Positions 4,099 to 43,143 of a DNA stretch of 64,000 bases are shown piece by piece. This DNA comes from Vampirovibrionales bacterium (GTDB lineage: Bacteria; Cyanobacteriota; Vampirovibrionia; Vampirovibrionales; Vampirovibrionaceae), in assembly GCA_029262635.1 (NCBI GenBank), contig JAJCZA010000005.1, positions 535,135 to 599,134 of the forward strand, read 5' to 3'. How positions within the stretch are numbered: position 1 is the stretch's first letter; every line of letters begins with the position of its first letter. Under the pieces are notes generated by a model that saw only the letters and a list, made by a program, of their open reading frames with translations, had not been told where the DNA came from and did no database searches. The translations under genes and the position numbers were made by a program.

Positions 4099-4671
4099 TT
4101 AAAATGCAATTTCAGACCGGGCATTCCCAAGCAGAGAAACGGTTGAGAAGTCGAGTGAAAACTCGCAACGCTCCGCATGGGCCAGCGCATACCCACCCAT
4201 GTTCAGCTCGATGCCGCCACTGGCATAAACCTGATCTTTTTTTGTGGACCATGTAAGGGAAGGCGCTTTAAGAGAACTGCCAGACTGATCGATGCTGGTG
4301 ACGGTTACTCCGTCCGTCAGGACCACGGCTTTATCTTTATCCACATAGGTTCCTTTTGGGGCGGTAAACGTAACGACGGGTTCGCCAGCGTCATTATAAA
4401 AGGTGCCCGAAATGTTCGTCAGGTTAGCTCCCGATTGGTCTTTGTAGTAAACGGTTTCCCGAACCTGAAGTTCCCACTTTTTGTGTTCTTTTTCGGTCAC
4501 GGTGAAGGTAACGTTCTCACCGGTAATGTCGCCGATGGGTTTACCGTTATTAGTCGAGCTTTCTGGATCAGGGGCACCGTTCATATAATAGCCGGTAAAA
4601 AGGAGGGAAAAAAGGCCGCCCAGAAGAATCAGACCTAAAATAGTATAAATTAATGTTTTTTGAGGGGCCAT
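4099..4671 (-). CDS. LptC-like membrane-anchored periplasmic protein (N-terminal TM, beta-rich body)
   Basis: 190 aa, single N-terminal TM helix then beta-strand-rich domain with LptC-like size and pattern; assignment is tentative. Confidence 0.4.
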   Translation of the reverse strand: MAPQKTLIYTILGLILLGGLFSLLFTGYYMNGAPDPESSTNNGKPIGDITGENVTFTVTEKEHKKWELQVRETVYYKDQSGANLTNISGTFYNDAGEPVVTFTAPKGTYVDKDKAVVLTDGVTVTSIDQSGSSLKAPSLTWSTKKDQVYASGGIELNMGGYALAHAERCEFSLDFSTVSLLGNARSEIAF

Positions 4672-4691
4672 GGGGGTAAATGTCCTGTTGG

Positions 4692-5585
4692 TTAAACCCG
4701 GGAGAAAACGCTTTCATTATAGCGCAACCCGTTCGGAGGTGTGACAGAGAAATGAGAAGGTATGACCGAGTGGGTTGATTTGGAAATGTGGGGGCGAAGC
4801 AAGGGACGGTGCCCAAATCCGTCGGAAGCAGTCTGTTGGAATGCCTGATAGGCCTTGTTATAAAAGGGGATGGCCAGGGGGGTGATGTGTTGTCCAAGCT
4901 GTTCGTATTTGTAATGAATTCCGTTTAAAATTCGATTGATCCGTTGTTTTTCATCCGGCGTGCTGATTAGTCCCGCTGAAATCCAATTTTTAAGGGCCTG
5001 GAGTAGTGGGGTTTTTTGATCCAGTTGATGGATTTTGAGCAAATCCAGAGTGGGCCAGTGGTTCGAGTTTAGGTGGCGAGATAAATAAGGGTAAAACGGA
5101 ATTTGGAAACTCTTCCAGAGGGTGGGGTTGTTAATCAGGGCGGTGGATAACCGGGTTAATGCCTGGTCTCGTTGTTCAGGGGAAAGGTGGTAGTCGGTTA
5201 TGCGTCCGAAAAAACGGGAAAAACTTAGGTCGGCAAACTCATTATTTTCCATCAGCTGATGGAATAGAGTGGCCTCTTTGGCGTCTTCACGGCACTCGAA
5301 ACGCAAGGTTCCATTGATGTGCAATTGCCAATAGGGCTTGGTTTGCCAAGTTTCTTTTTTCCAAATAATCAGATATAGAGTGTTGTTATTGGGCGCCCAT
5401 CCCATGGTCCATTCATTGGCCGGTAAGTTGTCATATAATAGGTTAATGGGGTCGTCGTATTCAGGTTTTAATCGATGCCAGCCTTTTTCCATCAGCTGAT
5501 GAAGGCACGACCGGGCTTCTTCGGAAGAGAAAAGAGGAGGTGTCTGTTTTTCAGGTAGGGTCGGAGTGGGAAAAAGGGTCATCAT
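4692..5585 (-). CDS. hypothetical protein (297 aa)
   Basis: long ORF, no motif recognised. Confidence 0.45.
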   Translation of the reverse strand: MMTLFPTPTLPEKQTPPLFSSEEARSCLHQLMEKGWHRLKPEYDDPINLLYDNLPANEWTMGWAPNNNTLYLIIWKKETWQTKPYWQLHINGTLRFECREDAKEATLFHQLMENNEFADLSFSRFFGRITDYHLSPEQRDQALTRLSTALINNPTLWKSFQIPFYPYLSRHLNSNHWPTLDLLKIHQLDQKTPLLQALKNWISAGLISTPDEKQRINRILNGIHYKYEQLGQHITPLAIPFYNKAYQAFQQTASDGFGHRPLLRPHISKSTHSVIPSHFSVTPPNGLRYNESVFSRV

Positions 5586-5678
5586 AGAGGCTCATCGAGT
5601 TTTTTTTGGCTCATGGGTGTGTCATATAATACAAAAGCTTCTGAACATTTTTTTGTGCGAGGATAAGCGAGCTTCCGA

Positions 5679-6365
5679 TTAAAAGGATAGGGGATTGACG
5701 GATGGTGGCGGCTCGATTGGGAGGGTTAGTCCGATTAGAGTGAGCAGGGTGGTGGTGATCGCACCACTGATTTGCAAGAAAAGAATCATCGCAACAGGAA
5801 GGATCGCAATCAGGCTTCGTTGCCAGCTTGCGTTGGAGTAGGCTTGCGTACCTAATGTCATGAGGGTTAGACTCCAAAGGGTGATGACGATCAGGGTGAC
5901 GACTTGAGTTATCATTAGGGCTGTGGTGTTCTGAATGAAAAAAAGAAGGGGGAAAAGAATAAGGTTGATCATAAGCAGGGAGGGTAAGGTGAAAAACAAA
6001 CATAACATGAAGACTTGTCGCCAATGAAGTGGTGCTTTAACCACGTGGCTGGTTCCCCAGAGAAAGAGAAACAGAACTGAAGGCCCCAGAATAAGGAGTT
6101 GCCAGGAGTGGATCAGCGTTTGAAAGTAGGTTGCTATAACTGAAAGAGTTTTCTTCCAAAGGTTTTGAGCTGTTATTTCAAGCCCATGGGTGGCCATGAT
6201 CTCGTGAAGAACGCTGAGTAAGAAGGTGATACCCAACATGCCAATCCATAAAGTCGCCAGTGTCTGCTTATTCCAATGATTGTTTTTATCTTTCTGAAAA
6301 AAACGGGAAGGGGCGATGAATAAATCCCGATAACCTTCGAGAACGGTTTGGCGTTTAATACACAT
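5679..6365 (-). CDS. polytopic membrane protein, Yip1-like topology
   Basis: soluble N-terminus then about 5 TM helices; last gene of the paa-like operon direction. Confidence 0.4.
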   Translation of the reverse strand: MCIKRQTVLEGYRDLFIAPSRFFQKDKNNHWNKQTLATLWIGMLGITFLLSVLHEIMATHGLEITAQNLWKKTLSVIATYFQTLIHSWQLLILGPSVLFLFLWGTSHVVKAPLHWRQVFMLCLFFTLPSLLMINLILFPLLFFIQNTTALMITQVVTLIVITLWSLTLMTLGTQAYSNASWQRSLIAILPVAMILFLQISGAITTTLLTLIGLTLPIEPPPSVNPLSF

Positions 6366-6377
6366 GACGAACTCGAC

Positions 6378-7598
6378 TTAAACCTTTTCAACAATCGTGG
6401 CAATGCCTTGTCCGACGCCAATACACATGGTGGCTAGACCGTAGCGACAATTGTCCCGGCGCATCATCTCGTAAATTAGGGTGGTCATGATTCTTGCCCC
6501 ACTACATCCTAGTGGATGCCCGAGTGCGATAGCGCCTCCGTTGACATTAATTTTAGAGACGTCGGCACCCAGCTCCTGAATACAAGCTAATGATTGAGCG
6601 GCGAAGGCCTCGTTGAGCTCAATAAGGTCAATTTGTTCCAATGTTAGTCCTGCCCGTTTTAAGGCTTTACGGGTGGCGGGTACGGGCCCCAATCCCATGT
6701 AGGCTGGATTAACCCCAGCAACTGACGTTGATCGAATACGAACCTTTGGGGTTAGTCCAAGTTCAAGCGCTTTCGCTTCTGACATAACGAGCAAGGCGGC
6801 GGCGCCATCGTTAATGCCGGATGAGTTTCCTGCCGTAACGCTTCCTCCCTCTTTAAATGCCGGTTTTAACGTGTGTAGTTTTTCCAACAGGGTGTCTGGG
6901 CGGGGATGCTCATCCGTATCCACAATAATGGGATCTTTCTTTTTTTGAGGAATAGTGACTGGAATAATTTCGTCTTTAAACCGGCCTTCGCTCATGGCTT
7001 TGCCCGCTTTCTGCTGACTATCAAAGGCAAACTGATCCTGCGCTTCTTGGGAGAGTTGAAATTTTTCGGCCACGTTTTCGGCTGTTTCGCCCATGCCGTA
7101 AGGGTAGTGCAATTGAGCCAGCTTCGGGTTGGTGAACCGCCAGCCGATGGTCGTATCAAAGAGGTCTGTCTTCCGGGAAAAAGCGGTGGGTGCCTTGGCC
7201 AGAACAAACGGTGCGCGGGTCATGCTTTCTACACCACCTGCAATGTAACACTCCGCCTCACCGGCTATAATGGCGTGGCTGGCCTGATTAATGGCCATAA
7301 GGCCTGAGCCACAGAGTCGGTTTACAGTGCCGCCAGCAATGGTTTCCGGGAGTTCGGCGAGTAGGACCGCCATCCGGGCCACGTTTCGATTGTCTTCGCC
7401 TGCTTGATTGGCGGCACCTAGAATCACGTCTTCAATGAGCGTTGGGTCCAGTTGGGGGTTACGCCGAACCAGTTCTTTCAGGACCAGAGCCGCTAAATCG
7501 TCTGGACGAACCGAGGCCAAGCTACCGGAAAATCGACCGACCGGGGTTCGGATAGCGTCAACAATGACGGGCGTGGTTTCCGGGGTGGTCGGGTTCAT
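6378..7598 (-). CDS. 3-oxoadipyl-CoA/3-oxoacyl-CoA thiolase (PaaJ/PcaF-like)
   Basis: thiolase signatures NRLCGSGL (active Cys), GGVESM, C-terminal GLATMCIGVGQG; start overlaps upstream gene by 4 nt. Confidence 0.9.
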   Translation of the reverse strand: MNPTTPETTPVIVDAIRTPVGRFSGSLASVRPDDLAALVLKELVRRNPQLDPTLIEDVILGAANQAGEDNRNVARMAVLLAELPETIAGGTVNRLCGSGLMAINQASHAIIAGEAECYIAGGVESMTRAPFVLAKAPTAFSRKTDLFDTTIGWRFTNPKLAQLHYPYGMGETAENVAEKFQLSQEAQDQFAFDSQQKAGKAMSEGRFKDEIIPVTIPQKKKDPIIVDTDEHPRPDTLLEKLHTLKPAFKEGGSVTAGNSSGINDGAAALLVMSEAKALELGLTPKVRIRSTSVAGVNPAYMGLGPVPATRKALKRAGLTLEQIDLIELNEAFAAQSLACIQELGADVSKINVNGGAIALGHPLGCSGARIMTTLIYEMMRRDNCRYGLATMCIGVGQGIATIVEKV

Positions 7599-8401
7599 GA
7601 CGAGGTTTCCTCCAGTTCGGTCTTGCTACCTTCGTAAATATAGAAACCTTCGCCGGTTTTAACACCAAGCTTGCCGGAGCCAGCCATCTGCTTGAGTAGA
7701 AGCACCGGACGGTAACGGTCTTCAAAATATTCGTTGACTAATGTGTCGAGAATCTGACAGATAACGTCGATACCGATTTTATCGGCCCATGCCAGTGGAC
7801 CTTCCGGGTAGTTCGTACCCAGCTTCATGGCGGTGTCAATATCTTCAGGGCTCGCCACGCCTTCCATTACGGCAGAAGCCGCCTCATTAACGAGCATAGC
7901 AAGCACTCTAGGGAGAACCAGTCCGGGGGTGTCCGTAATTTCATAAGCCTTGACCTGAAGGGATTGGAACAGATTTTTAGCCTTGGCTAGCGCTTCAGGG
8001 TCGGTGGCCTTGGTGGGCGCGAACTCAATAACGTGACGGCCTTGATAAAAGGCCAGCGGAGAGTACATGATGAGCCGGGAGATTACTTCTCTGTCAAAGA
8101 AGGGAGTATCATAGGTGGTTGCATAGCCTGAGGTGCTAATGCCTGATAAGAGAACAATGGGATGATGCTCTTCAGATAGGGCTTCCAGAAATTCTGGAAG
8201 ACTATGGTAGTCCATCCAGCCGTGATGGCAAATAATAACAAAGTCGGGCAGTTCATGAGCCTCTAGGGGTTCTTCCGGGATACTTTCCACATCGTCAATG
8301 TCATCGTAAATATGAACCTGATGTCCTGCCGTGCGACAGAGACTGAAAAAGGTTTGGGTAATCACATCCTGGGGCTTGCCCAGCAGAAAAATTTTACTCA
8401 T
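7595..8401 (-). CDS. 3-hydroxyacyl-CoA dehydrogenase-like protein with degenerate NAD-binding and catalytic motifs
   Basis: C-terminal 3HCDH dimerisation domain intact (PGLVLPRVLAMLVNEA...), but N-terminal GxGxxG replaced by LLGKPQD and the HFFNP catalytic-His region replaced by MYSPLAF. Confidence 0.65.
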   Translation of the reverse strand: MSKIFLLGKPQDVITQTFFSLCRTAGHQVHIYDDIDDVESIPEEPLEAHELPDFVIICHHGWMDYHSLPEFLEALSEEHHPIVLLSGISTSGYATTYDTPFFDREVISRLIMYSPLAFYQGRHVIEFAPTKATDPEALAKAKNLFQSLQVKAYEITDTPGLVLPRVLAMLVNEAASAVMEGVASPEDIDTAMKLGTNYPEGPLAWADKIGIDVICQILDTLVNEYFEDRYRPVLLLKQMAGSGKLGVKTGEGFYIYEGSKTELEETSS

Positions 8402-17294: not shown

Positions 17295-17849
17295 ATGACC
17301 ATGACAGGAAGTGAATTAAGCGATAAGCGAGTCCTGATTTTTGCGGGTCCTGACTATGAGGATTCCGAGTTAATGTATCCTTTGCTCCGTTTTAAAGAGG
17401 CGGGAGCTGAGGTAAAAGTGGCCGGGCTAGGTGAAAAGACCTACCAAGGCAAAAAAGGAACTACCGTGGATGTAGACGGTAGTGCGGAAGATTTTGTTGT
17501 CGGCTATTGGGATTTAGTCGTAATTCCCGGTGGTTGGGCGCCGGATAAGATGCGGATGAATGAAGCCGTGCTGAAAATTGTTCGAAAAGCGGTGGAGTCA
17601 GACAATCTGGTGGCGGCTATCTGTCATGCGGGTTGGGTTTTGGTTTCGGCGGATGTGGTTCAAGGCAAAAAAGTGACCAGCTATCGGGCGATTAAAGATG
17701 ATATGGTGAACGCCGGTGCCACATGGGTGGATGCGGAAGTGGTGGTGGACGGTAATCTAGTGACGTCTCGAACGCCGGCGGATTTACCGGCTTTTTGTCG
17801 TACGTTGGTTAGCCTGATGACTCAAACGCTTGCTGTACCGACTGCTTGA
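17295..17849 (+). CDS. DJ-1/PfpI-family protein
   Basis: AAICHAGWVL nucleophile-elbow Cys motif; start moved to ATG 17295 with SD GGAGAGGG upstream (ORF track starts at 17157). Confidence 0.85.
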   Translation: MTMTGSELSDKRVLIFAGPDYEDSELMYPLLRFKEAGAEVKVAGLGEKTYQGKKGTTVDVDGSAEDFVVGYWDLVVIPGGWAPDKMRMNEAVLKIVRKAVESDNLVAAICHAGWVLVSADVVQGKKVTSYRAIKDDMVNAGATWVDAEVVVDGNLVTSRTPADLPAFCRTLVSLMTQTLAVPTA

Positions 17850-17872
17850 GATTAGGGCGGTTAGTCAGGCAA

Positions 17873-18763
17873 TTATCGATTAAATGAAACAAACGGGCGG
17901 ATGAGCGTTTGTAGTAATTTTTCAGGGCTCTCCAGATCCAGGGTTTGTTTCCGTTTGTATTGGATCATGGCGAGGCGAGCCAATAATGCCGCATGCCATC
18001 CATAACGGTTCGCCTGAATGTAATCGAGCAACGCTTCATAACAGGCCAGGGTATTTTCCTGTGTGTGTGTATCCCGGGTGTATGTGCGGTGCATGTTGTT
18101 TCGGTGGATTCGGTAAGAGACCATGGGTTCTGGGTCATAGTAAACATCCCATCCCAATGAAAATTGCATCCACAGATGCCAATCGCCGGTATGCGTGAGC
18201 TTGGGGTTGTAATGGCCCGCTTTTTCGTAGCAGGCTTTTCGGGCCATGGCCGCCACAACGGGGACAAAATTCTCTTGTACGATTTTTTTGTAAAAGGCCC
18301 GGCCCGGATATACGGTAGGTGTTTCTGCCAGTTTCGGGTAATTTAGCCGGGGCACCCATTTTTCGACCGGTTGGCTCTCCTCATCCATCACTTGAGCTCG
18401 ACAAAACGCCAATCCGGTAGCCGGGCCTTGCTCAAATACGGTCATGTACCGCTGAAGAATATCGGGCGAAGTGAGGCAATCATCCGCTGACACACACCAA
18501 AGAAATTCGCCTTGGGCCATGGCGATGCCGTGATTGTAATTGGCCATATGGCCTTTATTCTTTTTATGGCGGATATATATAACCCGTGGGTCGTTTTTTG
18601 CAAGTTGATTGGCGACTTCGGGTGTTTGATCCCGAGAGCAGTCATCTAGAATCAAGATCTCGAAATCTTCATAAGACTGCTTTAAAATCGAATGGACACA
18701 CTCCGCTAAGTAGTGTCCATATTGATAGGTTGGAACGAAAAAAGTGACCCGTGGCTTTCTCAT
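17873..18763 (-). CDS. family-2 glycosyltransferase
   Basis: FFVPTYQYGHYLAECVHSILKQSY...ILILDDCSRD (GT-A DxD region); ORF track start 18835 is GTG, ATG at 18763 preferred. Confidence 0.8.
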   Translation of the reverse strand: MRKPRVTFFVPTYQYGHYLAECVHSILKQSYEDFEILILDDCSRDQTPEVANQLAKNDPRVIYIRHKKNKGHMANYNHGIAMAQGEFLWCVSADDCLTSPDILQRYMTVFEQGPATGLAFCRAQVMDEESQPVEKWVPRLNYPKLAETPTVYPGRAFYKKIVQENFVPVVAAMARKACYEKAGHYNPKLTHTGDWHLWMQFSLGWDVYYDPEPMVSYRIHRNNMHRTYTRDTHTQENTLACYEALLDYIQANRYGWHAALLARLAMIQYKRKQTLDLESPEKLLQTLIRPFVSFNR

Positions 18764-18874
18764 TAGAGGGTTATTATAACCGAACCTGAGAAAAAGGAGA
18801 GGGAATAAAAGAAGGTGATACGATGAAAAGTTCACCAGTCAATAAAACGATAGTAAAAAAGGAGTTTACGGGCG

Positions 18875-19360
18875 ATGACGATGGAAAAAGAACAAGCGTT
18901 ATTGGGAGCGGGATGCTTTTGGGGTGTTGAAGCCACATTTCGAAAGATTGAGGGGGTGTTGGAAACTGCCGTAGGCTACTCTGGCGGCGATGTGGTTAAT
19001 CCTACTTACGAAGACGTTTGCACGGGCATTACTGATCATGCTGAGGTTGTTCATATTGTCTTTGATCCGAAGGTGGTTTCTTATCGTATGCTGTTAACTG
19101 TTTTTTGGCAGGTTCATGATCCCACGACCCCGAATCGGCAAGGGCCGGATCAAGGGACCCAGTATCGTTCGGTTGTTTTTTGCTATAGCGATGCTCAACA
19201 TGCCGAAGCCCAGCAAATAAAACAAGAGTTTGAAGAAGCTAAAAAATTTTCACAGCCCATTGTGACCGAAATAACGCCGGCCTCTCTCTTTTATCGGGCA
19301 GAAGAATATCATCAGCGTTATTTTGAAAAACAAGGTCGTGGTCATTGTTATAGACCATAG
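18875..19360 (+). CDS. msrA: peptide-methionine (S)-S-oxide reductase MsrA
   Basis: GAGCFWGVE active-site motif, full-length 161 aa. Confidence 0.9.
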   Translation: MTMEKEQALLGAGCFWGVEATFRKIEGVLETAVGYSGGDVVNPTYEDVCTGITDHAEVVHIVFDPKVVSYRMLLTVFWQVHDPTTPNRQGPDQGTQYRSVVFCYSDAQHAEAQQIKQEFEEAKKFSQPIVTEITPASLFYRAEEYHQRYFEKQGRGHCYRP

Positions 19361-19470
19361 AACTTATTTTAAATGTAACAAAACTGCAATATTAACAAGC
19401 ACCAAGAGCAATCTTAATAAAATATTTGTTTTTATATAAATAGCATATGTAAAACAGGCAAAAAGAGAGC

Positions 19471-19493
19471 AAAGGTGCTTTTAAAAGGTGCTT
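19471..19493 (+). promoter_or_regulatory. 10-bp direct repeat AAAGGTGCTT x2 (3-bp spacer) in the long AT-rich region upstream of the repeat-protein gene
   Basis: exact repeat at 19471-19480 and 19484-19493 inside a 250-bp AT-rich non-coding region. Confidence 0.25.
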
Positions 19494-19634
19494 CTATTTG
19501 AGTGCCTAATCGATCATTAAAAAATGACAAATCAAACACAGACAAAAATGGTTTGTTTTGATAATCAGAAGAAGAATTTTAACGGATACAGATCCGTGTG
19601 CAGATAGAGATTGAGAGAGTTTAAGGGAAATACT

Positions 19635-21956
19635 ATGATTAATCCCCTTTTTAACAACTACCAAACAGCGAGATCCTTCCAGATGAATCCGGGAGTGTAT
19701 CAGCTTCCGACCCAGGCCCAGCCGCTCGCTTTTCAGCAGCCTCAGTTTCAAGGCCAACAGGCTGTGGGGCAACAAGCTTTAGGGCAGCCTCAAGGGGCTC
19801 AAATGATGAACATGATGCTCCAAATGATGAGCATGTTGCTTCAAGTGCTTCAACAACAATTTAATCCGGGAGGCCAAAAACCTTTAGGCCAACAGCCAAA
19901 TGCTGCTGCAGGCAATGCGGGTAATGCAGGTAATGCAGGTAATAGTGGCGCTCTTGGTGGAGCTCCTGCTGCTGCCGGTAATGCAGGTAACGCGGGCAAT
20001 AGTGGTGGTATTTATGGCACCCCTGCCGCTGCAGGCAATGCGGGTAATGCAGGTAACGCAGGTAATAGTGGTGCTCTTGGTGGAGCTCCTGCCGCTGCCG
20101 GTAATGCAGGTAACGCGGGCAATAGTGGTGGTATTTATGGCACCACTGCCGCTGCAGGCAATGCGGGTAACGCAGATAATGGTGGAGCTCCTGTTGATGC
20201 AGGTAACGCAGGTAATGGTGCTGGTGTTTATGATGCTCCCGGTGGTGCTTACGGTGCTCCCGGCGGAGCCCCTCCTGCAGGTGATGCAGGCAATGGTGTT
20301 GGTAATGACGGTACGCAACCTTATCTACAGACCGACGCCGAAGATGCCGTGGATTATATCTTAGCTCAGACCCAAGGTGGTACCAGTGGCGTAAACGAAG
20401 CCATTGAAGGTCGCTTTGCCCGGGACGGTTCCCGATTTGCAACGGCAGGTGCTAATGAGTTTGATGCGGCGATCGTGTCGAATTATGCGGCCCAATTTAA
20501 AGCGTTTGCTCTTGGAAAGGATCCTAAATTCGATCCGGGTGTTGATGATGTTAGAACCATTGCCAATAACATTACCGAAGCGCAACAAGTTCAATTTACA
20601 CCGGAAGCGGAACTCTTATCCAAGGTGGCTGCGGTTTACCGGGGCGAGATGACCGGTAGCGTAAACGAGTATGACAACAATGCCCTGAGAAATGTTCTAC
20701 TTCAGTTTAACCGGGGTGACATTGCCAATACAGACGGTGTCGGCCAGTTTGACGTTCAGTCAATTGGTGGTGTGGTCAAAATGCTCAATGAAGAGCAAGA
20801 CCCGGCGCTTCGTCAGCAAATGCTTCAGCAGGTTTTTGACTTCCAGGGGAACTCTCCCTCCAGTCCAAGTGGAGCGGTTCCTCAGCTCGGTGCTTATCAG
20901 CGAGCCGTTGATGTGGTTCGAAACGGTACCATTGATGGCTTATTGAATAACTATGCCAATGGTGTTCAGACCACCCAGCCTCTTTACAATGGCCCGGCAA
21001 ATCCAAATGGCGAGCCTGTTTCAGGGGCAGTTAACCGGAATATTGATTTTCAGGCCCTGAGTACGCAAGATCGAACTGCTCTTGGACTCAATGACCGTGA
21101 TCGAGCTGTTCTCCATCTATATGGTCGTCAAATGATTTCTCAAGGGTTTCAGGATGGCGGTATCTACACTAATATTCTGGATAACAACACGGGTACCGCT
21201 GCGGAACAACAATTAGTTGCGGAACTTCGGGCAAGAGATCAAGCCCAGTTTGGTGTGGATACTGGTGTTGCGTTGGATGAAGAGTTTTTTGCTCTCCATC
21301 AACGACTCACGGGTGAAGATTTATCGACCCGATATGCCAACCGGCAGGTCAATGCTTCACAAGGTGCCATTAATATTGTTAACGATCTGGATCAGCTCCA
21401 GCAAAAGACAGGTTTATCCACGTTTGAGCAGTCTATCTTAAGACTCTATGGCCACGAACCCTTAATGAACGGCGGAAAAATTGATGGCTCCAGTCTCGCT
21501 TATACCATTGCCAACAGTAATGCATTAGATAGTGACGCAAAATCGGGTGGAAATGGTATTGATACTCAAGCTCAGACGTTACTGGAGCTTGATCTTGCTC
21601 GGGATGGTGTTGTCAACGGCGATGCGTTAAGCATTGGTTTTACTGGCGCATTAGATAAGCTTTATCTGGGTACAGAGGGTGTGACCGAACAAGGTCTGCA
21701 GCAAACCGTTATGAATCAAGCCGCTCAACTTGGCCGGACCACTCAACAAATTGGTCAAGATGTGTCTCGGGGTGTCGATGCTGCCATTGGTCAAGCAACT
21801 CAACTCGTTAAGGATCACCCAGTCACTTCCGTTGCCGCTGCAGGTGGACTAGCCGCCGCTACAGCTGTATGCCCTTACCTTGGTGGGTTAGGCGCATCGG
21901 GTGTCGCCGCAACATTTGGTGGCCCTCAGGCCGGAGGTAATGGTATTCCAGTCTAA
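19635..21956 (+). CDS. large low-complexity protein: Q-rich N-terminus, (GNA)n tandem repeats, about 580-aa C-terminal region of unknown function; no signal peptide
   Basis: ATG 19635 with SD AAGGGA 6 nt upstream (ORF track start 19611 is TTG); long ORF; antisense His/Tyr-rich ORFs are artefacts. Confidence 0.7.
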   Translation: MINPLFNNYQTARSFQMNPGVYQLPTQAQPLAFQQPQFQGQQAVGQQALGQPQGAQMMNMMLQMMSMLLQVLQQQFNPGGQKPLGQQPNAAAGNAGNAGNAGNSGALGGAPAAAGNAGNAGNSGGIYGTPAAAGNAGNAGNAGNSGALGGAPAAAGNAGNAGNSGGIYGTTAAAGNAGNADNGGAPVDAGNAGNGAGVYDAPGGAYGAPGGAPPAGDAGNGVGNDGTQPYLQTDAEDAVDYILAQTQGGTSGVNEAIEGRFARDGSRFATAGANEFDAAIVSNYAAQFKAFALGKDPKFDPGVDDVRTIANNITEAQQVQFTPEAELLSKVAAVYRGEMTGSVNEYDNNALRNVLLQFNRGDIANTDGVGQFDVQSIGGVVKMLNEEQDPALRQQMLQQVFDFQGNSPSSPSGAVPQLGAYQRAVDVVRNGTIDGLLNNYANGVQTTQPLYNGPANPNGEPVSGAVNRNIDFQALSTQDRTALGLNDRDRAVLHLYGRQMISQGFQDGGIYTNILDNNTGTAAEQQLVAELRARDQAQFGVDTGVALDEEFFALHQRLTGEDLSTRYANRQVNASQGAINIVNDLDQLQQKTGLSTFEQSILRLYGHEPLMNGGKIDGSSLAYTIANSNALDSDAKSGGNGIDTQAQTLLELDLARDGVVNGDALSIGFTGALDKLYLGTEGVTEQGLQQTVMNQAAQLGRTTQQIGQDVSRGVDAAIGQATQLVKDHPVTSVAAAGGLAAATAVCPYLGGLGASGVAATFGGPQAGGNGIPV
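19902..20186 (+). repeat. in-frame tandem repeat, 123-bp unit (41 aa AAAGNAGNAGNAGNSGALGGAPAAAGNAGNAGNSGGIYGTP) x2.3, near-identical copies
   Basis: units 19902-20024, 20025-20147, partial 20148-about 20186; only a few synonymous/one T-to-P differences. Confidence 0.85.
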
Positions 21957-36801: not shown

Positions 36802-37488
36802 ATGACGACGGGTCTTTCGGTTGAAGAAAAAACTATATCAGCTCAGGGAAAGGCTTTTCAGCTATTTCAGGAAGCTAAAAAGCAAAAATTGATTCAGCCG
36901 GGAAAGACAGAAAAACAATTGAGTGATGAGGTTTATCAATTAGCCGATGAACTTTTTGGGGTTAAAAAATATTGGCACAAACGGATTGTTCGTTCAGGTT
37001 TGAATACACTTGAAACGTATTCAGGTAATCCGCCCAATTTAATCATTCAAGATGATGACATTGTGTTCTTTGATTTTGGTCCTATTTTTGATTCTTATGA
37101 AGCGGATCTCGGTCGTACGTATGTGCTGGGTCAGGATTCGAATAAATTAAGACTACAGAAAGACTTGGAATGTATTTTTATAGAAGGAAAACAGTTTTAT
37201 AAAGAAAACCCAGAGCTTAGTGGTCATGATTTCTACGGAAAAATTGTTTCTTTATCCGAGGAGCGTGGGTGGCAATATGGAAATTCTCATTGTGGCCATT
37301 TAATTGGTGAATTTTCCCATGAAAGGCGTTGTGGCGAGTTGCCAGAGAATTATATTTGTACGGATAACTTAAAGTCAATGGATACACTGGATCGACATGG
37401 CGAGTTTCGTCACTGGATTCTAGAAATACATTTGGTTGACCCGACCAATCAATGGGGCGGGTTTTATGAGGATTTATTGACACTCTAA
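36802..37488 (+). CDS. short M24-family (pita-bread fold) metallopeptidase-like protein; AT-rich gene
   Basis: D..x11..D (FFDFGPIFDSYEADLGRT), HLIGEFSHE and ILEIH metal-ligand pattern; about 38% GC versus about 50% flanks; SD GAGGTG. Confidence 0.55.
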   Translation: MTTGLSVEEKTISAQGKAFQLFQEAKKQKLIQPGKTEKQLSDEVYQLADELFGVKKYWHKRIVRSGLNTLETYSGNPPNLIIQDDDIVFFDFGPIFDSYEADLGRTYVLGQDSNKLRLQKDLECIFIEGKQFYKENPELSGHDFYGKIVSLSEERGWQYGNSHCGHLIGEFSHERRCGELPENYICTDNLKSMDTLDRHGEFRHWILEIHLVDPTNQWGGFYEDLLTL

Positions 37489-38690
37489 CCTGAAACCGGT
37501 TCCATAATGAGTTCGTCGCTGTCTAATGGTTTTTCGATTTCTTCGATGTCTTTGGCGTGGAGGGCGTTTTTTAGGCTGGTGTCGCCTTGGTAACTTTTAA
37601 TGAGTTCCGCTTCAAAAAAGGTCAGGGCTTCGACTTCGGTTTCGATTCGGGCGATTTTCTCTTCGCCTTTAAAGACGAAAAATTTTCCTTTACCCCCGGC
37701 AATACCAATATCCGCTCGCTCACATTCGCCGGGGCCGTTGACGAAACAACCCATGACGGCCACATGAAGCGGGCTTTTACCGTAGATGCGATCATACTTA
37801 GCCACCATGGCCTCGACTTGGCGGGTCAGGCCGTGAAGATCAATTTCGCACCGCCCGCAGGCCGGGCAACTGACAATATCCGAGCCGGTTTTTCGCAGGC
37901 CGAGGCTTTTCAAAATCTCATGCCCCGCAAAGACCTCTTCGATGGAATCCGCCGTGAGCGAAATACGGATGGTGTCGCCAATGCCTTCGCTGAGCAGAAT
38001 CCCTAGGGCTACGGAACTTTTAATAATACCCCGTTTCAGCGTTCCGGCTTCGGTCACGCCGAGATGGAGTGGGTAAGGTACCTCACTGGCCAGTCGCTGG
38101 TAAGCGGCCACGGCATCCATGGGGTCGCTGGCTTTAACGGAAATTTTCATTTGGTCAAAGTCTTCTGCTTCCAGCAGGCGCACGTTCAATTGGGCGCTTT
38201 CCACCAGTTGGGTCACCAGATTGTCCGGGTACTTTTCTTTGACGCTTTTTTCAACGGAACCACTATTGACACCGATTCGAATGGGGAGGTCCCGTTCTTT
38301 GGCCTTGGCCACCACCGCCCGGGTAAATTCGGCCCGGCCAATATTTCCGGGATTAATGCGCAGGCCGTGGACGCCATTATCCGCCGCTTGTAGGGCGAGA
38401 CGGTAATCAAAATGAATATCGGCAATTACCGGAATAGGCGAGGCGGGGACAATCTGCTTTAGGGCATCGGCAGCTTCTTTATCCGGAACGGCCACCCGGA
38501 TAATCTCGCACCCGGCGTCCGCCAGCCGCTGAATTTGATACACACTGGTTTTCACATCCCGCGTGTCATTCACTAACATGGATTGAACCGCAATGGGCGC
38601 ATCGCCACCGATTTCGACGGGACCCACATGGATTTTTTTAGAGGCACGTCGTTGGTTTTGTTTTTTATTATTGGTTAGGTCAGTAGTCAT
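37485..38690 (-). CDS. ispG: 4-hydroxy-3-methylbut-2-enyl diphosphate synthase IspG
   Basis: GcpE TIM-barrel N-domain and C-terminal Cys motifs (CPACGRC...GCFVNGPGE); 401 aa. Confidence 0.9.
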   Translation of the reverse strand: MTTDLTNNKKQNQRRASKKIHVGPVEIGGDAPIAVQSMLVNDTRDVKTSVYQIQRLADAGCEIIRVAVPDKEAADALKQIVPASPIPVIADIHFDYRLALQAADNGVHGLRINPGNIGRAEFTRAVVAKAKERDLPIRIGVNSGSVEKSVKEKYPDNLVTQLVESAQLNVRLLEAEDFDQMKISVKASDPMDAVAAYQRLASEVPYPLHLGVTEAGTLKRGIIKSSVALGILLSEGIGDTIRISLTADSIEEVFAGHEILKSLGLRKTGSDIVSCPACGRCEIDLHGLTRQVEAMVAKYDRIYGKSPLHVAVMGCFVNGPGECERADIGIAGGKGKFFVFKGEEKIARIETEVEALTFFEAELIKSYQGDTSLKNALHAKDIEEIEKPLDSDELIMEPVSG

Positions 38691-38737
38691 AATTGAAGTT
38701 TTTATCTGAATTAAAGTAGGTAATTAAAGCAGAAAGA

Positions 38738-39469
38738 TCATTTAGTTTCTTCAGGACTGCGAAAGTCTAAGGGAGAAAAGTTTTGTGAATAGTGACAGGG
38801 TAAGGTTAAAGGTATGGAATCACTTTTATCATAGTCGTATTCATGAAGCCAGTGTGTGACATTAAATGCGTCAACTGACTGATCATCAAAAAGTAATATC
38901 CAACCAACTGGCCACCAAGATACCTCTGCAACTATTTGGCTATAACTTGTTTTGAAATTTATAGGAGATGTTATGCCTGTTGTATAGCGACCACTCCTTT
39001 GGCATTTTAAATAAAGGTAAATATGTAGCGGGTCAATAGATCCGGTTTTTTCTCTATTTAGTATTAATTCTCGGAGAATTTGTTGTTTGTCTGAGAAATC
39101 AGTGCCACAAGTACAACAGAACATAGCGAGTACTTGCTTTATAATCCTTAGAGGAAAAACATCCCGTACAGTGATTGGAAGGTCTTTTTGAGCATTTCCT
39201 TCGTGAGCAAGATCGACAAGTTGTTTGATAAATTCTATGTAGGGTCTTGCATACCAGCTTCCTGTGTCATTGTTGCATTTTCGACAAGAAACCCGTTCGG
39301 CACTACCCCCCTGTCGCTGTTTGCCTTGCCAAGTTAGTTCTCCACTGTGCAGCTCAAGGGCTTGAAGTAATACGGTATCTTCGTTAAAAGCTCTTCTTGG
39401 AGGAACATGTTCTCTAGAGAGGGGGCCAATACGGCCACAGATACAACACTTACCTTCGGTGTTTGGCAT
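38738..39469 (-). CDS. HNH-endonuclease-domain protein with unknown about 160-aa C-terminal domain; AT-rich single-gene insertion
   Basis: CCICG...SREHVPP...N...SCRKCNNDTG matches the HNH CxxC/H/N/CxxCN architecture; about 38% GC. Confidence 0.5.
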   Translation of the reverse strand: MPNTEGKCCICGRIGPLSREHVPPRRAFNEDTVLLQALELHSGELTWQGKQRQGGSAERVSCRKCNNDTGSWYARPYIEFIKQLVDLAHEGNAQKDLPITVRDVFPLRIIKQVLAMFCCTCGTDFSDKQQILRELILNREKTGSIDPLHIYLYLKCQRSGRYTTGITSPINFKTSYSQIVAEVSWWPVGWILLFDDQSVDAFNVTHWLHEYDYDKSDSIPLTLPCHYSQNFSPLDFRSPEETK

Positions 39470-39472
39470 TAT

Positions 39473-41176
39473 CTAGACCATTGGCTCTTTTTCCGGGTAG
39501 TATTCTTTGAGATAGCCGGGGGTGGGGAGGCTTTCTTTGTAGAGGATGTCTCGGGGGACGCCGAGGTTAATGGTGTCCCACGGGAGGATTTCCGATTCCG
39601 GGCGTTCCCGCAGGGCGTACCAATCGAGTTCGGGGAAATCGAGTTCGCCTTCAGCCCTGAGTTCTTTCATGGCGCGATTAATATGACCCAGCGAACCGCC
39701 GTGTTCGTAGAACCGGACAAGAAGCTTGGAGAGTCGTCGATCACCTCGGGACAAAAACGCCTGAAAGTAATCCCACTTGGCGCTGGTGGCCCGAACATCA
39801 CAGGTTTTAGCGAGGCCCTTTTTTAGGCGCTTAAATCGCGCGTCCACGTCTTTATTATCTGGGCGACTCATCCACTGGAAGGGGGTGCCACCTTTGGGCA
39901 CGAAGGAACTGGAGCCCAAAATAATTTCTAAACCCGGCGCCGCCTGCTTTACTTCTTTCATTAGGGCTACGGTTTCGTCAATATCTTCAGGTGTTTCGTC
40001 GGGAAGAGCTACCATGCCGTAAAATTTCAGTGATTTTAGTCCGCCCGCTTTGGCGATTTCAGCGCACTGAATGATTTGTTCATGTTTCAGGTTTTTATTA
40101 ATGCGACGACGAAGTTTTTCCGAACCGGTCTCAATGGCCACCGTGAGCTGGCGCTGATTGCCCCGGACAAACGTTTTAACAATATCCTCGGTGATGGTAT
40201 CCACCCGCAAAGACGAGGCGGAAATATCCAAGTCCGGGTTTTCATCGAGTTTTTTGTGGAGGTGAGCGCAGATATCGTCAAAATTCGGGTGATTGGAAAT
40301 CAGCGCCCCTAAAAGCCCGAGCTTGTTGGTGTGTTGCAGGCCTTGGTCAATGATTTGAATAATACGATCCGCACTGGGTCCACGAGCCGGGAGCATAGAA
40401 TAGCTGGCGAGGCAGAAGCGGCACCGGTGGGCGCACCCTCGCATGACTTCCACCAGAAATTTATTGGCAAAAATAGCCTTGTCCGAAATAATGGGGCTGG
40501 AGGCGACAAAGTTATCCATGTTTTCGATCAGGCGTTTTTGCACAACGGTGGGAATGTCATCGTATTTGGGGGTGATGCTTTTAATGGGGCCGTCCGGGCT
40601 TTCGTATTCAACCTCATACAGTCCGGGAGCGTAAAGACCGGGAACTTCCGCCGCGATGCGTCGAATGAGTTCTTCTCGATCTGTCAGGTGTTCGTATTTT
40701 TTATAGGCTTGGGTTAGTTCGCTCATCATCTCTTCGCCTTCGCCGACGAGGAAAAAATCAAAAAAGTCGGCAAAGGGCTCTGGATTACTCATGGGTACCG
40801 GGCCACCGGCAAAAATTAGGGGATGACTTCGGTTCCGGTCTTTGGCGAAAAACGGGATGTTGTATGTCTCGAATGTTTTAAGAATCGCGATGACATCCAG
40901 CTCAAAGGAAAACGAAAAGCCCATGAGTTCAAACTGGCGAGGGTCGTAATCGGTCAGCGTATCCATATAGACCCGGCTGACATTAACATCCGGATTTTGA
41001 TCCATGTCTTTAAAGAGAATGAGATAGCCCAATGATGACAGGGCAATCTGATAGCTTGCGGGATACATAAATCCGAGATTGACCGCATCGGGGTTGGGCG
41101 GGACAGGATCGTAAAGATAGATCTCTTGTGCCTCGTCCTTGCGGTAGACGGCGTCTTTTCGGGTGGTTTGAGCCAT
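39473..41176 (-). CDS. B12-binding-domain radical SAM protein (class B), function unknown
   Basis: N-terminal cobalamin-binding-like domain, CAHRCRFC CxxxCxxC motif, long C-terminal extension; 567 aa. Confidence 0.8.
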   Translation of the reverse strand: MAQTTRKDAVYRKDEAQEIYLYDPVPPNPDAVNLGFMYPASYQIALSSLGYLILFKDMDQNPDVNVSRVYMDTLTDYDPRQFELMGFSFSFELDVIAILKTFETYNIPFFAKDRNRSHPLIFAGGPVPMSNPEPFADFFDFFLVGEGEEMMSELTQAYKKYEHLTDREELIRRIAAEVPGLYAPGLYEVEYESPDGPIKSITPKYDDIPTVVQKRLIENMDNFVASSPIISDKAIFANKFLVEVMRGCAHRCRFCLASYSMLPARGPSADRIIQIIDQGLQHTNKLGLLGALISNHPNFDDICAHLHKKLDENPDLDISASSLRVDTITEDIVKTFVRGNQRQLTVAIETGSEKLRRRINKNLKHEQIIQCAEIAKAGGLKSLKFYGMVALPDETPEDIDETVALMKEVKQAAPGLEIILGSSSFVPKGGTPFQWMSRPDNKDVDARFKRLKKGLAKTCDVRATSAKWDYFQAFLSRGDRRLSKLLVRFYEHGGSLGHINRAMKELRAEGELDFPELDWYALRERPESEILPWDTINLGVPRDILYKESLPTPGYLKEYYPEKEPMV

Positions 41177-41313: not shown

Positions 41314-42411
41314 ATGACCACTTTGGCCCCCGAAATTAAAGAAACACTGCCGACGAACCGCTTGGAGCGAAACGAGGCGTTGCGCCTGTTTCAAGAAGCG
41401 GATTTGTTTACCTTGGGCATTATGGCCGAAGAGGTAAAATATCGCTTTCACGGGGCGAATCCAGCATATACGTTTGTGATTGACCGAAATGTGAACTACA
41501 CCAATGTGTGTAATGTGGATTGTCTATTCTGCGCCTTTTATCGTCCGGCAGACCACCCGGAAGCTTATACCCTGACTTTTGAGCAAATTAAAGAGAAGGT
41601 GGAAGAGCTGATGCTTGCGGGTGGAACCCAGCTATTGCTTCAAGGCGGCGTGAACCCGGATTTGCCGTTTGAGTATTACACGGATCTGGTGCGAAATATT
41701 CGAAATGAATTCCCGGAGCTGACCATTCATGCTTTTTCGCCGACAGAAGTCTCTTTTATGGCAGAGCAGACGGGGCAATCTGTCAAATGGATTTTAGAGC
41801 AGTTGATTGATGCCGGTATGTCGTCCTTGCCGGGCGCCGGCGGTGAAATTCTCCACGATGATATCCGGCGCAAGGTTAGTCATAAAAAAGTGAAGACTGA
41901 AGACTGGATGGGTGTGATGGATACGGCGCACAAGCTTGGCATGAAAACCTCATCGACGATGATGTTTGGCATGATGGAAGAGGATTGGCACATTATCGAT
42001 CATCTGTTCCGCATCCGAGAACAGCAGGATAAAACCGGCGGATTCCTGTCCTTTATTCCGTGGACTTTTCAACGAGCCAACACCAAGTTAGAACGCTTGC
42101 CCAATCAGGCCGCTACCGGACTAGAATATTTGCGAGTCAGTGCCATGGCCCGGATTATTCTGGATAACGTCCCTAATATCGGTGCATCGTGGATTACCCA
42201 AGGCGTTAAGCTCGGTCAAACCGCTCTGACGATGGGCGCTAATGATATGGGCGGACTGCTCCTCGAAGAAAACGTGGTGACCCAAGCCGGAATCAACCCC
42301 ACGAGAAAAAGCGTCGAAGAAATGGTTAAAGCCATCCACGACACCGGCCACGACGCCGCCCAACGCGATACGGCGTATAATATCTTGAAGGTCTTTCCGG
42401 TGGGAGTGTAA
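41314..42411 (+). CDS. radical SAM enzyme of the MqnC/MqnE (futalosine-pathway) / CofH-like family
   Basis: CNVDCLFCAF CxxxCxxC motif and family-typical length/pattern; cannot discriminate MqnC versus MqnE. Confidence 0.7.
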   Translation: MTTLAPEIKETLPTNRLERNEALRLFQEADLFTLGIMAEEVKYRFHGANPAYTFVIDRNVNYTNVCNVDCLFCAFYRPADHPEAYTLTFEQIKEKVEELMLAGGTQLLLQGGVNPDLPFEYYTDLVRNIRNEFPELTIHAFSPTEVSFMAEQTGQSVKWILEQLIDAGMSSLPGAGGEILHDDIRRKVSHKKVKTEDWMGVMDTAHKLGMKTSSTMMFGMMEEDWHIIDHLFRIREQQDKTGGFLSFIPWTFQRANTKLERLPNQAATGLEYLRVSAMARIILDNVPNIGASWITQGVKLGQTALTMGANDMGGLLLEENVVTQAGINPTRKSVEEMVKAIHDTGHDAAQRDTAYNILKVFPVGV

Positions 42412-42414
42412 ACA

Positions 42415-43143
42415 TTATTGATTTTTCTTGCTTCTCAATTCTTCTAATAGTCGTTCAGACAAATCAAGAATAGTATTCCAGTCGGCTAATATTTGTGCGT
42501 GAAATTGAATCATGGGTGGATCGGTTTCAGAGTCAGCTACAATAAAGGGCTTAAAATTTTCTGACTGAGTTTGGTTAATGTTGCTTTTAAAGTCTGCCCT
42601 TTCATTGGTTCTCTTCTTATAATCTTCCGCCTTCTTTGGGGTTAAACAAAAGGGTGGAATATAAGGAGGCATTCTATGTGCGAGAGAGTGGCGGAATTGC
42701 TCTAAATTTTCTTTCCACTTTGTAAGCCGCTCAGAATTTAGATACTCTCTGAATTCCTCAGATAACTTCCTTTGAATTTTTTTATTAAATAGACTTACCT
42801 CATGCTTTCTTTTAGACTCAAATTGGGTTTCTGTAACCCATATCCAAGCAAGGTTATCAATGCAGCCATAAGTATTGAAAGAAAATGCTTGCAGGTTAAT
42901 AGTAATATCAGTGAGAGTCTTATCAGACGGTCCTTCTGCTTGATTTAGAGGGCAAAGCATATAAGTATTTTGAATACACCTTTTTAAAGTAGACATTCTA
43001 CGAAGTAACCCGTTATATACGTAATTGGGGTATTCCTGAGTGTCGAAAAAAAGAGTATATTTAGATACTAGGTCTTGATGGGTTTCTTCTACAGAGTTGT
43101 AGCCTGTTGTAAGCTTCTTGATGTTTTCTTGAGAATAAAACAT
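42415..43143 (-). CDS. hypothetical protein with HEPN-like RxxxxAH motif (Abi_2/AbiD-like candidate); AT-rich single-gene insertion
   Basis: about 33% GC; FRHSLAHR resembles the Rx4-6H HEPN motif; otherwise no match. Confidence 0.4.
   Translation of the reverse strand: MFYSQENIKKLTTGYNSVEETHQDLVSKYTLFFDTQEYPNYVYNGLLRRMSTLKRCIQNTYMLCPLNQAEGPSDKTLTDITINLQAFSFNTYGCIDNLAWIWVTETQFESKRKHEVSLFNKKIQRKLSEEFREYLNSERLTKWKENLEQFRHSLAHRMPPYIPPFCLTPKKAEDYKKRTNERADFKSNINQTQSENFKPFIVADSETDPPMIQFHAQILADWNTILDLSERLLEELRSKKNQ

Follow-up and report, generated by a model that had tools for sequence, protein, structure and literature searches.

A solitary, apparently acquired HNH-family gene between a radical-SAM gene and ispG in a Vampirovibrionales bacterium represents a widespread unnamed family of candidate conflict nucleases

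Single-gene modification-dependent nucleases are built from a nuclease domain and an exchangeable sensor domain (PMC12191111), and variable prophage slots, the P2/P4 hotspots among them, serve as stores of anti-phage systems (Rousset et al. 2022, PMC9122126). Within the His-Me finger classification, the HNH_5 proteins of 'group 8' are bacterial, absent from viruses and without an assigned function (PMC5714182). Here we describe a gene of HNH type that lies alone between a radical-SAM gene and ispG on a contig of a Vampirovibrionales bacterium (assembly GCA_029262635.1, contig JAJCZA010000005.1, positions 535,135 to 599,134); this whole stretch of 64,000 nucleotides is referred to as the window. 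We give an even chance to the reading that the gene encodes a stand-alone, single-protein conflict nuclease, acting in defence or exclusion, in which a putative sensor domain would be joined to an HNH effector.

The described systems differ in how closely they approach this locus. Like the McrA/ScoMcrA (HNH) and END nucleases, the gene is solitary, has no cognate methylase and combines a nuclease with a separate putative recognition domain, and members of its family, like these type IV enzymes, are found in defence islands and mobile genetic elements (MGEs) (PMC12191111). The family departs from the type IV enzymes in its C-terminal domain, which matches no SRA, PUA/EVE/ASCH/YTH, winged helix or inactivated EndoIII domain by sequence or by fold. 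In McrA the order of domains is opposite to the HNH-first order of the family. With group 8 the likeness lies in the C-x2-C...(D/E)-H...N...C-x2-C-N zinc-finger motif of beta-beta-alpha-metal type, and half of the diverse family members match HNH_5; the window protein, however, falls below every HNH threshold, has a variable inter-strand loop of some 30 residues and carries a conserved C-terminal domain of 160 amino acids (aa). The family may overlap group 8 as described in PMC5714182.

The gene (38738..39469, minus strand) is a complete 243-aa open reading frame (ORF) including its stop codon, as defined from the ORF listing, family homologues and an AlphaFold2 (AF2) model. It begins 3 bp past the stop (39473) of a B12-binding-type, TIGR03960-like radical-SAM gene, the native upstream flank (39473..41176, minus; Pfam and NCBIfam), and ends 47 bp before the start (38690) of ispG (GcpE), the downstream flank (37485..38690, minus; Pfam GcpE E = 7e-137, and synteny). 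All three genes share one orientation. An earlier note on this DNA, made from the sequence alone, had given these spacers exactly, the span 38691-39472 being the ORF plus its two spacers; it had also put the GC content at about 38%, a figure that becomes 40.6% for the ORF and 39.4% for the span, vs 52.5% for ispG and 50.8% for the radical-SAM gene. The foreign look of the composition held up under this correction: GC at third codon positions (GC3) is 0.299, the lowest of the 51 window ORFs of at least 150 aa (mean 0.482, sd 0.060, z about -3), and equal AT-richness occurs in just 4.6% of 732-bp windows across the 64 kb. The 47 bp from the HNH stop to the ispG start (38691..38737, minus) are likewise AT-rich in sequence and contain a tandem AATTAAAG(T/C)AG pair at 38709-38732. 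A scan for promoter- and terminator-like sites found none on the coding (minus) strand between the radical-SAM, HNH and ispG genes. The HNH gene is probably co-transcribed with both neighbours, and its translation may be coupled to that of the radical-SAM gene, whose end is 3 bp upstream.

Comparison with relatives shows that the position is empty elsewhere. The radical-SAM gene abuts ispG directly, with no HNH gene, in three close relatives: a metagenome contig (L012), in which 18 bp separate the radical-SAM stop from the ispG start and the radical-SAM orthologue is 92% amino-acid identical, GCA_029262655.1 (L013), with a 28-bp spacer, and GCA_006844805.1 (L014), with an 18-bp spacer. Local alignment and blastn place the breakpoints at common positions for all three, with homology ending at 39487/39489 and restarting at 38653. 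The resulting insert without a counterpart in relatives (38654..39486, minus), delimited by local alignments to L012 and blastn to L013 and L014, measures 833 bp and stands in place of approximately 42 bp at the relatives' junction. Since three relatives lack the gene at this position, the insertion is lineage-specific, and the earlier note's proposal of a foreign gene is borne out by the lowest GC3 of 51 ORFs together with this absence; conservation of the gene at this position everywhere with host-like GC was not seen. Composition and synteny together show that the HNH gene arrived recently by horizontal transfer, its neighbours on both sides being native housekeeping genes.

The manner of its arrival left few traces. 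Identity of the flanks to the relatives at the junction is 0.88-0.90 on the left and 0.73-0.75 on the right; because these values fall inside the background range of 0.72-0.92, no co-conversion tract can be seen beside the junction. Arrival together with diverged donor flanks was ruled out, as identity shows no dip at the junction. The ends of the insert are sharply defined and carry only short, chance-level matches in place of terminal direct or inverted repeats, and no integrase, transposase or recombinase adjoins the gene in the window. At the corresponding junction of L105, a more distant relative with 78% identity in ispG, stand two different genes (4332..5903), encoding a 184-aa protein of unknown function and a DAGK_cat-like kinase, and the junction is therefore recurrently variable across the lineage. 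The window ispG is 94% identical to P0196, and its closest named relatives, Vampirovibrionales and Melainabacteria metagenome-assembled genomes, stand at approximately 67-71%, which would assign the window to the non-photosynthetic branch of the cyanobacterial lineage; a scan of GTDB species genomes, in which this lineage is not represented, returned as orthologous loci only a distant Clostridia radical-SAM gene. Two other low-GC patches of the window were considered as foreign genes and rejected, that at 18.9-19.7 kb being msrA plus intergenic DNA and that at 46-47 kb the 3' end of ileS.

The insertion also altered ispG itself. In the window the predicted N-terminus begins MTTDLTNNKKQNQRRASKKI, and the relatives share MAIKRRESKKI; the first ispG codons, situated in the AT-rich insert, encode MTTDLTNNKKQN- in place of the ancestral MAIK-. 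Junction sequences and orthologue N-termini thus place the new 5' end of ispG, comprising the start codon and first 12 codons (38654..38690, minus), within the inserted DNA, while the rest of the gene is native. The ancestral start was deleted by the insertion. As the ispG start codon lies in the insert, simple loss of the insert would inactivate this essential gene of the methylerythritol phosphate (MEP) pathway. The window is a clean natural case of a foreign gene structurally entangled with an essential one, and initiation of ispG within the insert bears on how accessory genes become hard to lose.

The N-terminal part of the protein (residues 1-83; 39221..39469, minus) contains the residues of an HNH motif, namely C8-x2-C11, E20-H21-V-P23-P24, N29 and C62-x2-C65-N66, which are invariant or at least 90% conserved both in 37 close family members and in 150 diverse representatives with approximately 30% identity to the window protein. 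In the latter set G55, C62, C65, Y73 and K111 are invariant, and C8, C11, E20, H21, P23, P24, N29, N66, P106, L107, Q112, E182, P187, D235 and R237 are at least 90% conserved. The HNH His and Asn are thus retained on proper alignment across diverse members. The AF2 model of the whole chain (predicted local distance difference test (pLDDT) 85, predicted template modelling score (pTM) 0.84) places E20-H21 directly after the strand 14-19, and C62-x2-C65-N66 at the junction of the strand 59-62 with the helix 63-82. This is the layout of a beta-beta-alpha-metal fold, in which the two core strands are separated by a variable loop (residues 34-54) modelled with low confidence.

Profile searches recover this relationship through the family and not through the window protein. 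The latter matches no HNH model at E<1 in Pfam, NCBIfam or PADLOC, and its sole HNH-annotated match in PHROGs is non-significant (phrog_28142, E=0.27). Among the 150 diverse members, 75 match HNH_5 (PF14279; best E 5.5e-6), nine match Endonuclease_7 and five match HNH; 22 of the 37 close members match HNH_5 (best E 0.0017). A Foldseek search of the whole model against the PDB recovered no HNH structure; the core of approximately 40 residues, split by a disordered loop, is therefore a poor Foldseek target. Sequence searches of the PDB gave noise only for the single protein and a sub-threshold match to the HNH region of IscB (E = 0.74) for the family profile. Transitivity through the family and the motif together support the assignment of residues 1-83 as a divergent Cys4-zinc HNH (His-Me finger) domain with its predicted catalytic and zinc-binding set intact. 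The 'classic' HNH signature of the earlier note was right as to the presence and conservation of the residues and overstated as to how classic they are, the window protein matching no HNH model.

The remainder of the protein (residues 84-243; 38741..39220, minus) is a predicted alpha/beta domain that is conserved as strongly as the HNH part and includes the invariant K111. Modelled alone it reached a pLDDT of 91.6 and a pTM of 0.86, with six strands and several helices. No Pfam model covers it in the window protein or in the 150 members, Foldseek gave no PDB match at E<=0.001 (best E 0.15-0.6, TM <=0.23), and the whole-chain model had no match in BFVD. Resemblances to PAS, Cache, GAF, longin and Cyt1A folds were set aside as unusable (probability <0.35, TM <=0.23). 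The uncharacterised domain of approximately 160 aa noted earlier is accordingly both conserved and without annotation.

The two domains occur together in a large family. A word-index search returned 40 homologues, all unannotated and without Pfam domains, and an exhaustive profile search returned 3,032 representative clusters (defined at 50% identity) at E<=1e-3, with 929 at E<=1e-30. Nearly all of these clusters are 240-290 aa long and match over their full length; the family appears to be under selection as a two-domain unit, which speaks for the conflict-nuclease reading. Among the long variants examined for fusions, just one has a C-terminal HTH_17 domain, and the extensions of the others have no Pfam domain. 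Members are distributed across Firmicutes, Actinobacteria, Proteobacteria, Myxococcota and the cyanobacterial lineage, on plasmids, prophages and chromosomes. Sixteen plasmid records carry homologues at 22-27% identity (Lactobacillales, Listeria, Enterococcus, Streptomyces, Rhodococcus, Iamia and Vibrio), and every RefSeq/GenBank plasmid homologue is annotated 'hypothetical protein'. Five contigs with the family were found among 2.9 million in IMG/VR, and none of 50,697 phage genomes yielded a homologue by tblastn. In PHROGs, the family-like phrog_21495 (profile length 269) matches the window protein over residues 4-68 (E = 3e-4) and is matched by 88 of the 150 members (best E 2e-11); as it carries no annotation, no functional information was gained from it. 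A literature search found no named system with this architecture. The family is without a name, a curated model or, for two thirds of its length, a structural relative.

The genomic settings of homologues are varied. In every locus examined the family gene is solitary and its insertion site different, and in 10 of 14 loci it is AT-richer than its flanks. Conflict systems are close by in several cases. A type I restriction-modification (R-M) operon lies four genes upstream of the homologue in L003, and in L103 the homologue has a ParE toxin-antitoxin pair on one side and a SIR2_2 gene on the other. The homologue of L001 is near HipA and 6.5 kb from a Multi_ubiq/Prok-E2_E/JAB-ThiF/BubE operon (17350..19815), while in L106 (locus 5013..7994) a divergent member with 27% identity follows, at a distance of 28 bp and in the same orientation, an 86-aa ORF and genes for Prok-E2_E and ThiF (E1); these two contexts may link the family to bacterial ubiquitin-like conflict systems. 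Some homologues are carried by conjugative or integrative elements. Insertion sequence (IS) elements flank the homologue in L109, toxin-antitoxin and IS genes are near it in L020, and in L021 it stands amid P1-like phage-plasmid genes. Across these settings the members are lone cargo genes, occupying variable slots of prophages, plasmids, integrative elements and chromosomal islands.

Methyltransferases recur in these neighbourhoods and bring in another explanation, namely that the gene encodes a sequence-specific, type II-like HNH restriction endonuclease, either an orphan or one whose methyltransferase is elsewhere in the genome. A co-oriented Dam-like methylase of the D12 class lies 70 bp upstream of the homologue in L104, within a methyltransferase/ParB cluster; L015 has an adjacent ParB-N6_N4 methyltransferase and a nearby integrase; on a Leuconostoc plasmid (L108) the homologue sits in an R-M cluster with an S-subunit, a C5-methylase and an adenine-methylase nearby; and on a Weissella plasmid (L022) a type III-like R-M pair (methyltransferase plus helicase) and a Y-family polymerase are near, together with MobQ. 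HNH enzymes of type II are known, moreover (PMC5714182). Most homologues, however, have no adjacent methyltransferase, none adjoins the window gene, and a crude motif screen found no DNA-methyltransferase motifs in the 64 kb. A sequence-specific enzyme would be lethal if left unprotected. Those methyltransferases that do occur near homologues are of differing classes, so that co-location in defence islands fits better than cognate pairing. We regard a type II-like enzyme as very unlikely.

Alternatively, the protein may be an accessory nuclease outside conflict, serving MGE maintenance or DNA processing on plasmids and integrative conjugative elements, or a decaying passenger, a neutral remnant kept in the window solely through the dependence of ispG on its start codon. 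Homologues do lie beside transfer and replication genes, with a TraG/TrwB coupling protein 23 bp upstream in L009, MobQ in L022, and a ResIII helicase, a Rep protein and an integrase nearby in L019, and at the window locus deletion of the insert, with the start codon and 12 codons of ispG in it, would be costly in the way described above. From locus to locus, however, no transfer or replication gene recurs as a regular partner. The window copy has its full length and has lost none of the invariant and near-invariant residues of the family, and there is therefore no sign of decay. An accessory or passenger role is accordingly unlikely in our estimate.

One prophage locus places the family in a slot whose other contents can be surveyed. 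On an IMG/VR contig (L017/L023), a 254-aa member, 26% identical to the window protein, lies between the large terminase (TerL) and portal genes and has 31% GC vs 50% in the flanks. Across 73 related loci (the L023-L102 group, portal 72-100% identical), the TerL|portal gap is at most 70 bp in approximately 30, and elsewhere it holds 0.4-3.8 kb of varied cargo that is always AT-richer than the flanks. Pfam identified AIPR, AbiEii, ParE with RelB, Fic/Doc and an HTH-ImmA-like protein in the slot, the AbiEii gene adjoining a putative antitoxin ORF without a Pfam match. Further occupants are a canonical HNH protein, distinct from the family and equipped with a C-terminal domain of its own, a 642-aa ATPase-like protein together with its partners, and several proteins of unknown kind. 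The HNH family itself occupies one of the 73 junctions. This mixture of unrelated cargo marks the slot as a general cargo hotspot, and TerL|portal as the homing site of one endonuclease was ruled out on the same observation. As in the P2/P4 hotspots (PMC9122126), a variable slot between conserved phage genes holds abortive-infection and toxin-antitoxin cargo; this hotspot, however, belongs to a different phage group and the window copy is chromosomal and not in a prophage, and co-occupancy of a slot with abortive-infection (Abi) and toxin genes is an association and not proof of defence.

These loci bear also on the possibility that the gene is a selfish, free-standing homing-endonuclease-like element, which would cut the empty radical-SAM|ispG or equivalent site, be copied in at repair and persist through mobility. 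The window insertion falls precisely at the boundary of two conserved genes of like orientation; its spacers are tiny, a recombinase and terminal repeats are lacking, and it is paralleled by the AT-rich TerL|portal case. The HNH fold is a classic one among homing endonucleases (PMC5714182, Table 1), DNA binding could be the task of the C-terminal domain, and the gene is present or absent at a conserved intergenic site, being missing in L012-L014 and at 72 of 73 TerL|portal junctions. The free-standing HNH homing endonucleases of phages (T4 MobA-E and the I-HmuI relatives; PMC5714182, Table 1) are likewise lone genes of sporadic occurrence between conserved genes. The family differs from these, however, in having no homologue in the phage genomes searched (only five loci in the IMG/VR contigs), no recurrent site, no co-conversion tract and no Pfam-detected NUMOD/IENR modules. 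In addition, the other filled TerL|portal junctions hold toxin-antitoxin, Abi and other cargo and not homing endonucleases; deletion of the ancestral ispG start is not a clean landing; and the C-terminal domain is conserved family-wide and does not vary with the target site. The suggestion in the earlier note of a homing-derived gene therefore stands as regards presence/absence polymorphism, and fails as regards a recurrent site, a conversion tract and phage homologues. Homing is an unlikely explanation for the gene, and we attach small probability to the related idea that the family is a minimal, self-mobilising one-gene element, in which the HNH domain would be guided by a new DNA-binding fold without a recombinase, which would insert between conserved genes of chromosomes, prophages and plasmids alike, and which would here have become fixed via the ispG start.

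We return to a conflict nuclease as the favoured reading. In this scheme the C-terminal domain would be a sensor or target-recognition module for the modification or structure of invading DNA, or for an infection cue, and would license the N-terminal HNH domain to cut nucleic acid, following the logic of modification-dependent (type IV-like) or abortive-infection single-protein nucleases. Several observations weigh against it. Fold searches tied the C-terminal domain to none of the known sensors or modified-base readers, which makes its role as a sensor pure inference. None of the 150 members matches a relevant defence model in PADLOC v2.0.0 (PADLOC-DB v2.0.0, 2023), and the best match of the window protein is to PbeC (E = 0.0021, over 58 residues). 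The evidence from context is drawn from approximately 20 loci without statistical control; L004-L008 have a plainly housekeeping context (cobW/WD40), the window copy has housekeeping neighbours only and no defence neighbours, and an isochorismatase-like gene in the L024 TerL|portal slot is non-defence moron cargo.

The proposal of defence or abortive infection in the earlier note therefore fared unevenly. The PADLOC check that it had suggested returned no defence system for the window protein or the 150 members, and the window lacks defence neighbours; homologues do lie near R-M, toxin-antitoxin, SIR2 and E2/E1 genes and share a slot with Abi genes, which is circumstantial support. That the family founds an anti-phage system of a new and widespread kind, made of one protein and using a new sensor fold, is plausible, with a probability somewhat short of even. 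If the gene does encode a defence nuclease, the catalogue would gain a common system consisting of one gene, together with a new sensor domain, and the annotation of thousands of 'hypothetical proteins' would improve. If not, its interest is modest, as that of a further acquired HNH gene.

Further observations concern the surroundings of the locus. A CofH/MqnE-like radical-SAM gene of the futalosine-pathway type (41314..42411, plus) is divergently paired with the TIGR03960-like gene, and this pair together with ispG is the sole block syntenic with all relatives examined (L012-L014 and L105). The three lowest GC3 values of the window belong to the HNH gene and to two other ORFs, all around this one syntenic three-gene block. 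One of them (42415..43143, minus) lies directly after the mqnE-like gene and is an orphan 242-aa ORF with 35.7% GC and a GC3 of 0.33; it has no Pfam, NCBIfam or PHROGs match, forms a singleton cluster, is not found in the relatives, and has a weak match to the PADLOC 'E1-E2' model (E = 9e-4). The other (36802..37488, plus), AT-rich at 38% GC and 228 aa long, contains part of a Peptidase_M24 domain; it runs convergently to ispG, with a 4-bp overlap at the 3' end of the latter, and is also a singleton cluster that the relatives lack. Downstream of ispG in L012 (6171..7259) and L014 (7356..8444), an AT-rich gene that is absent from the window encodes a 362-aa protein of repeated G-G-x-G-N-D-R-F-K units. 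Elsewhere in the window, a 781-aa ORF (19611..21956, plus) contains long low-complexity repeats of the AGNAGNAGNSG type near its N-terminus.

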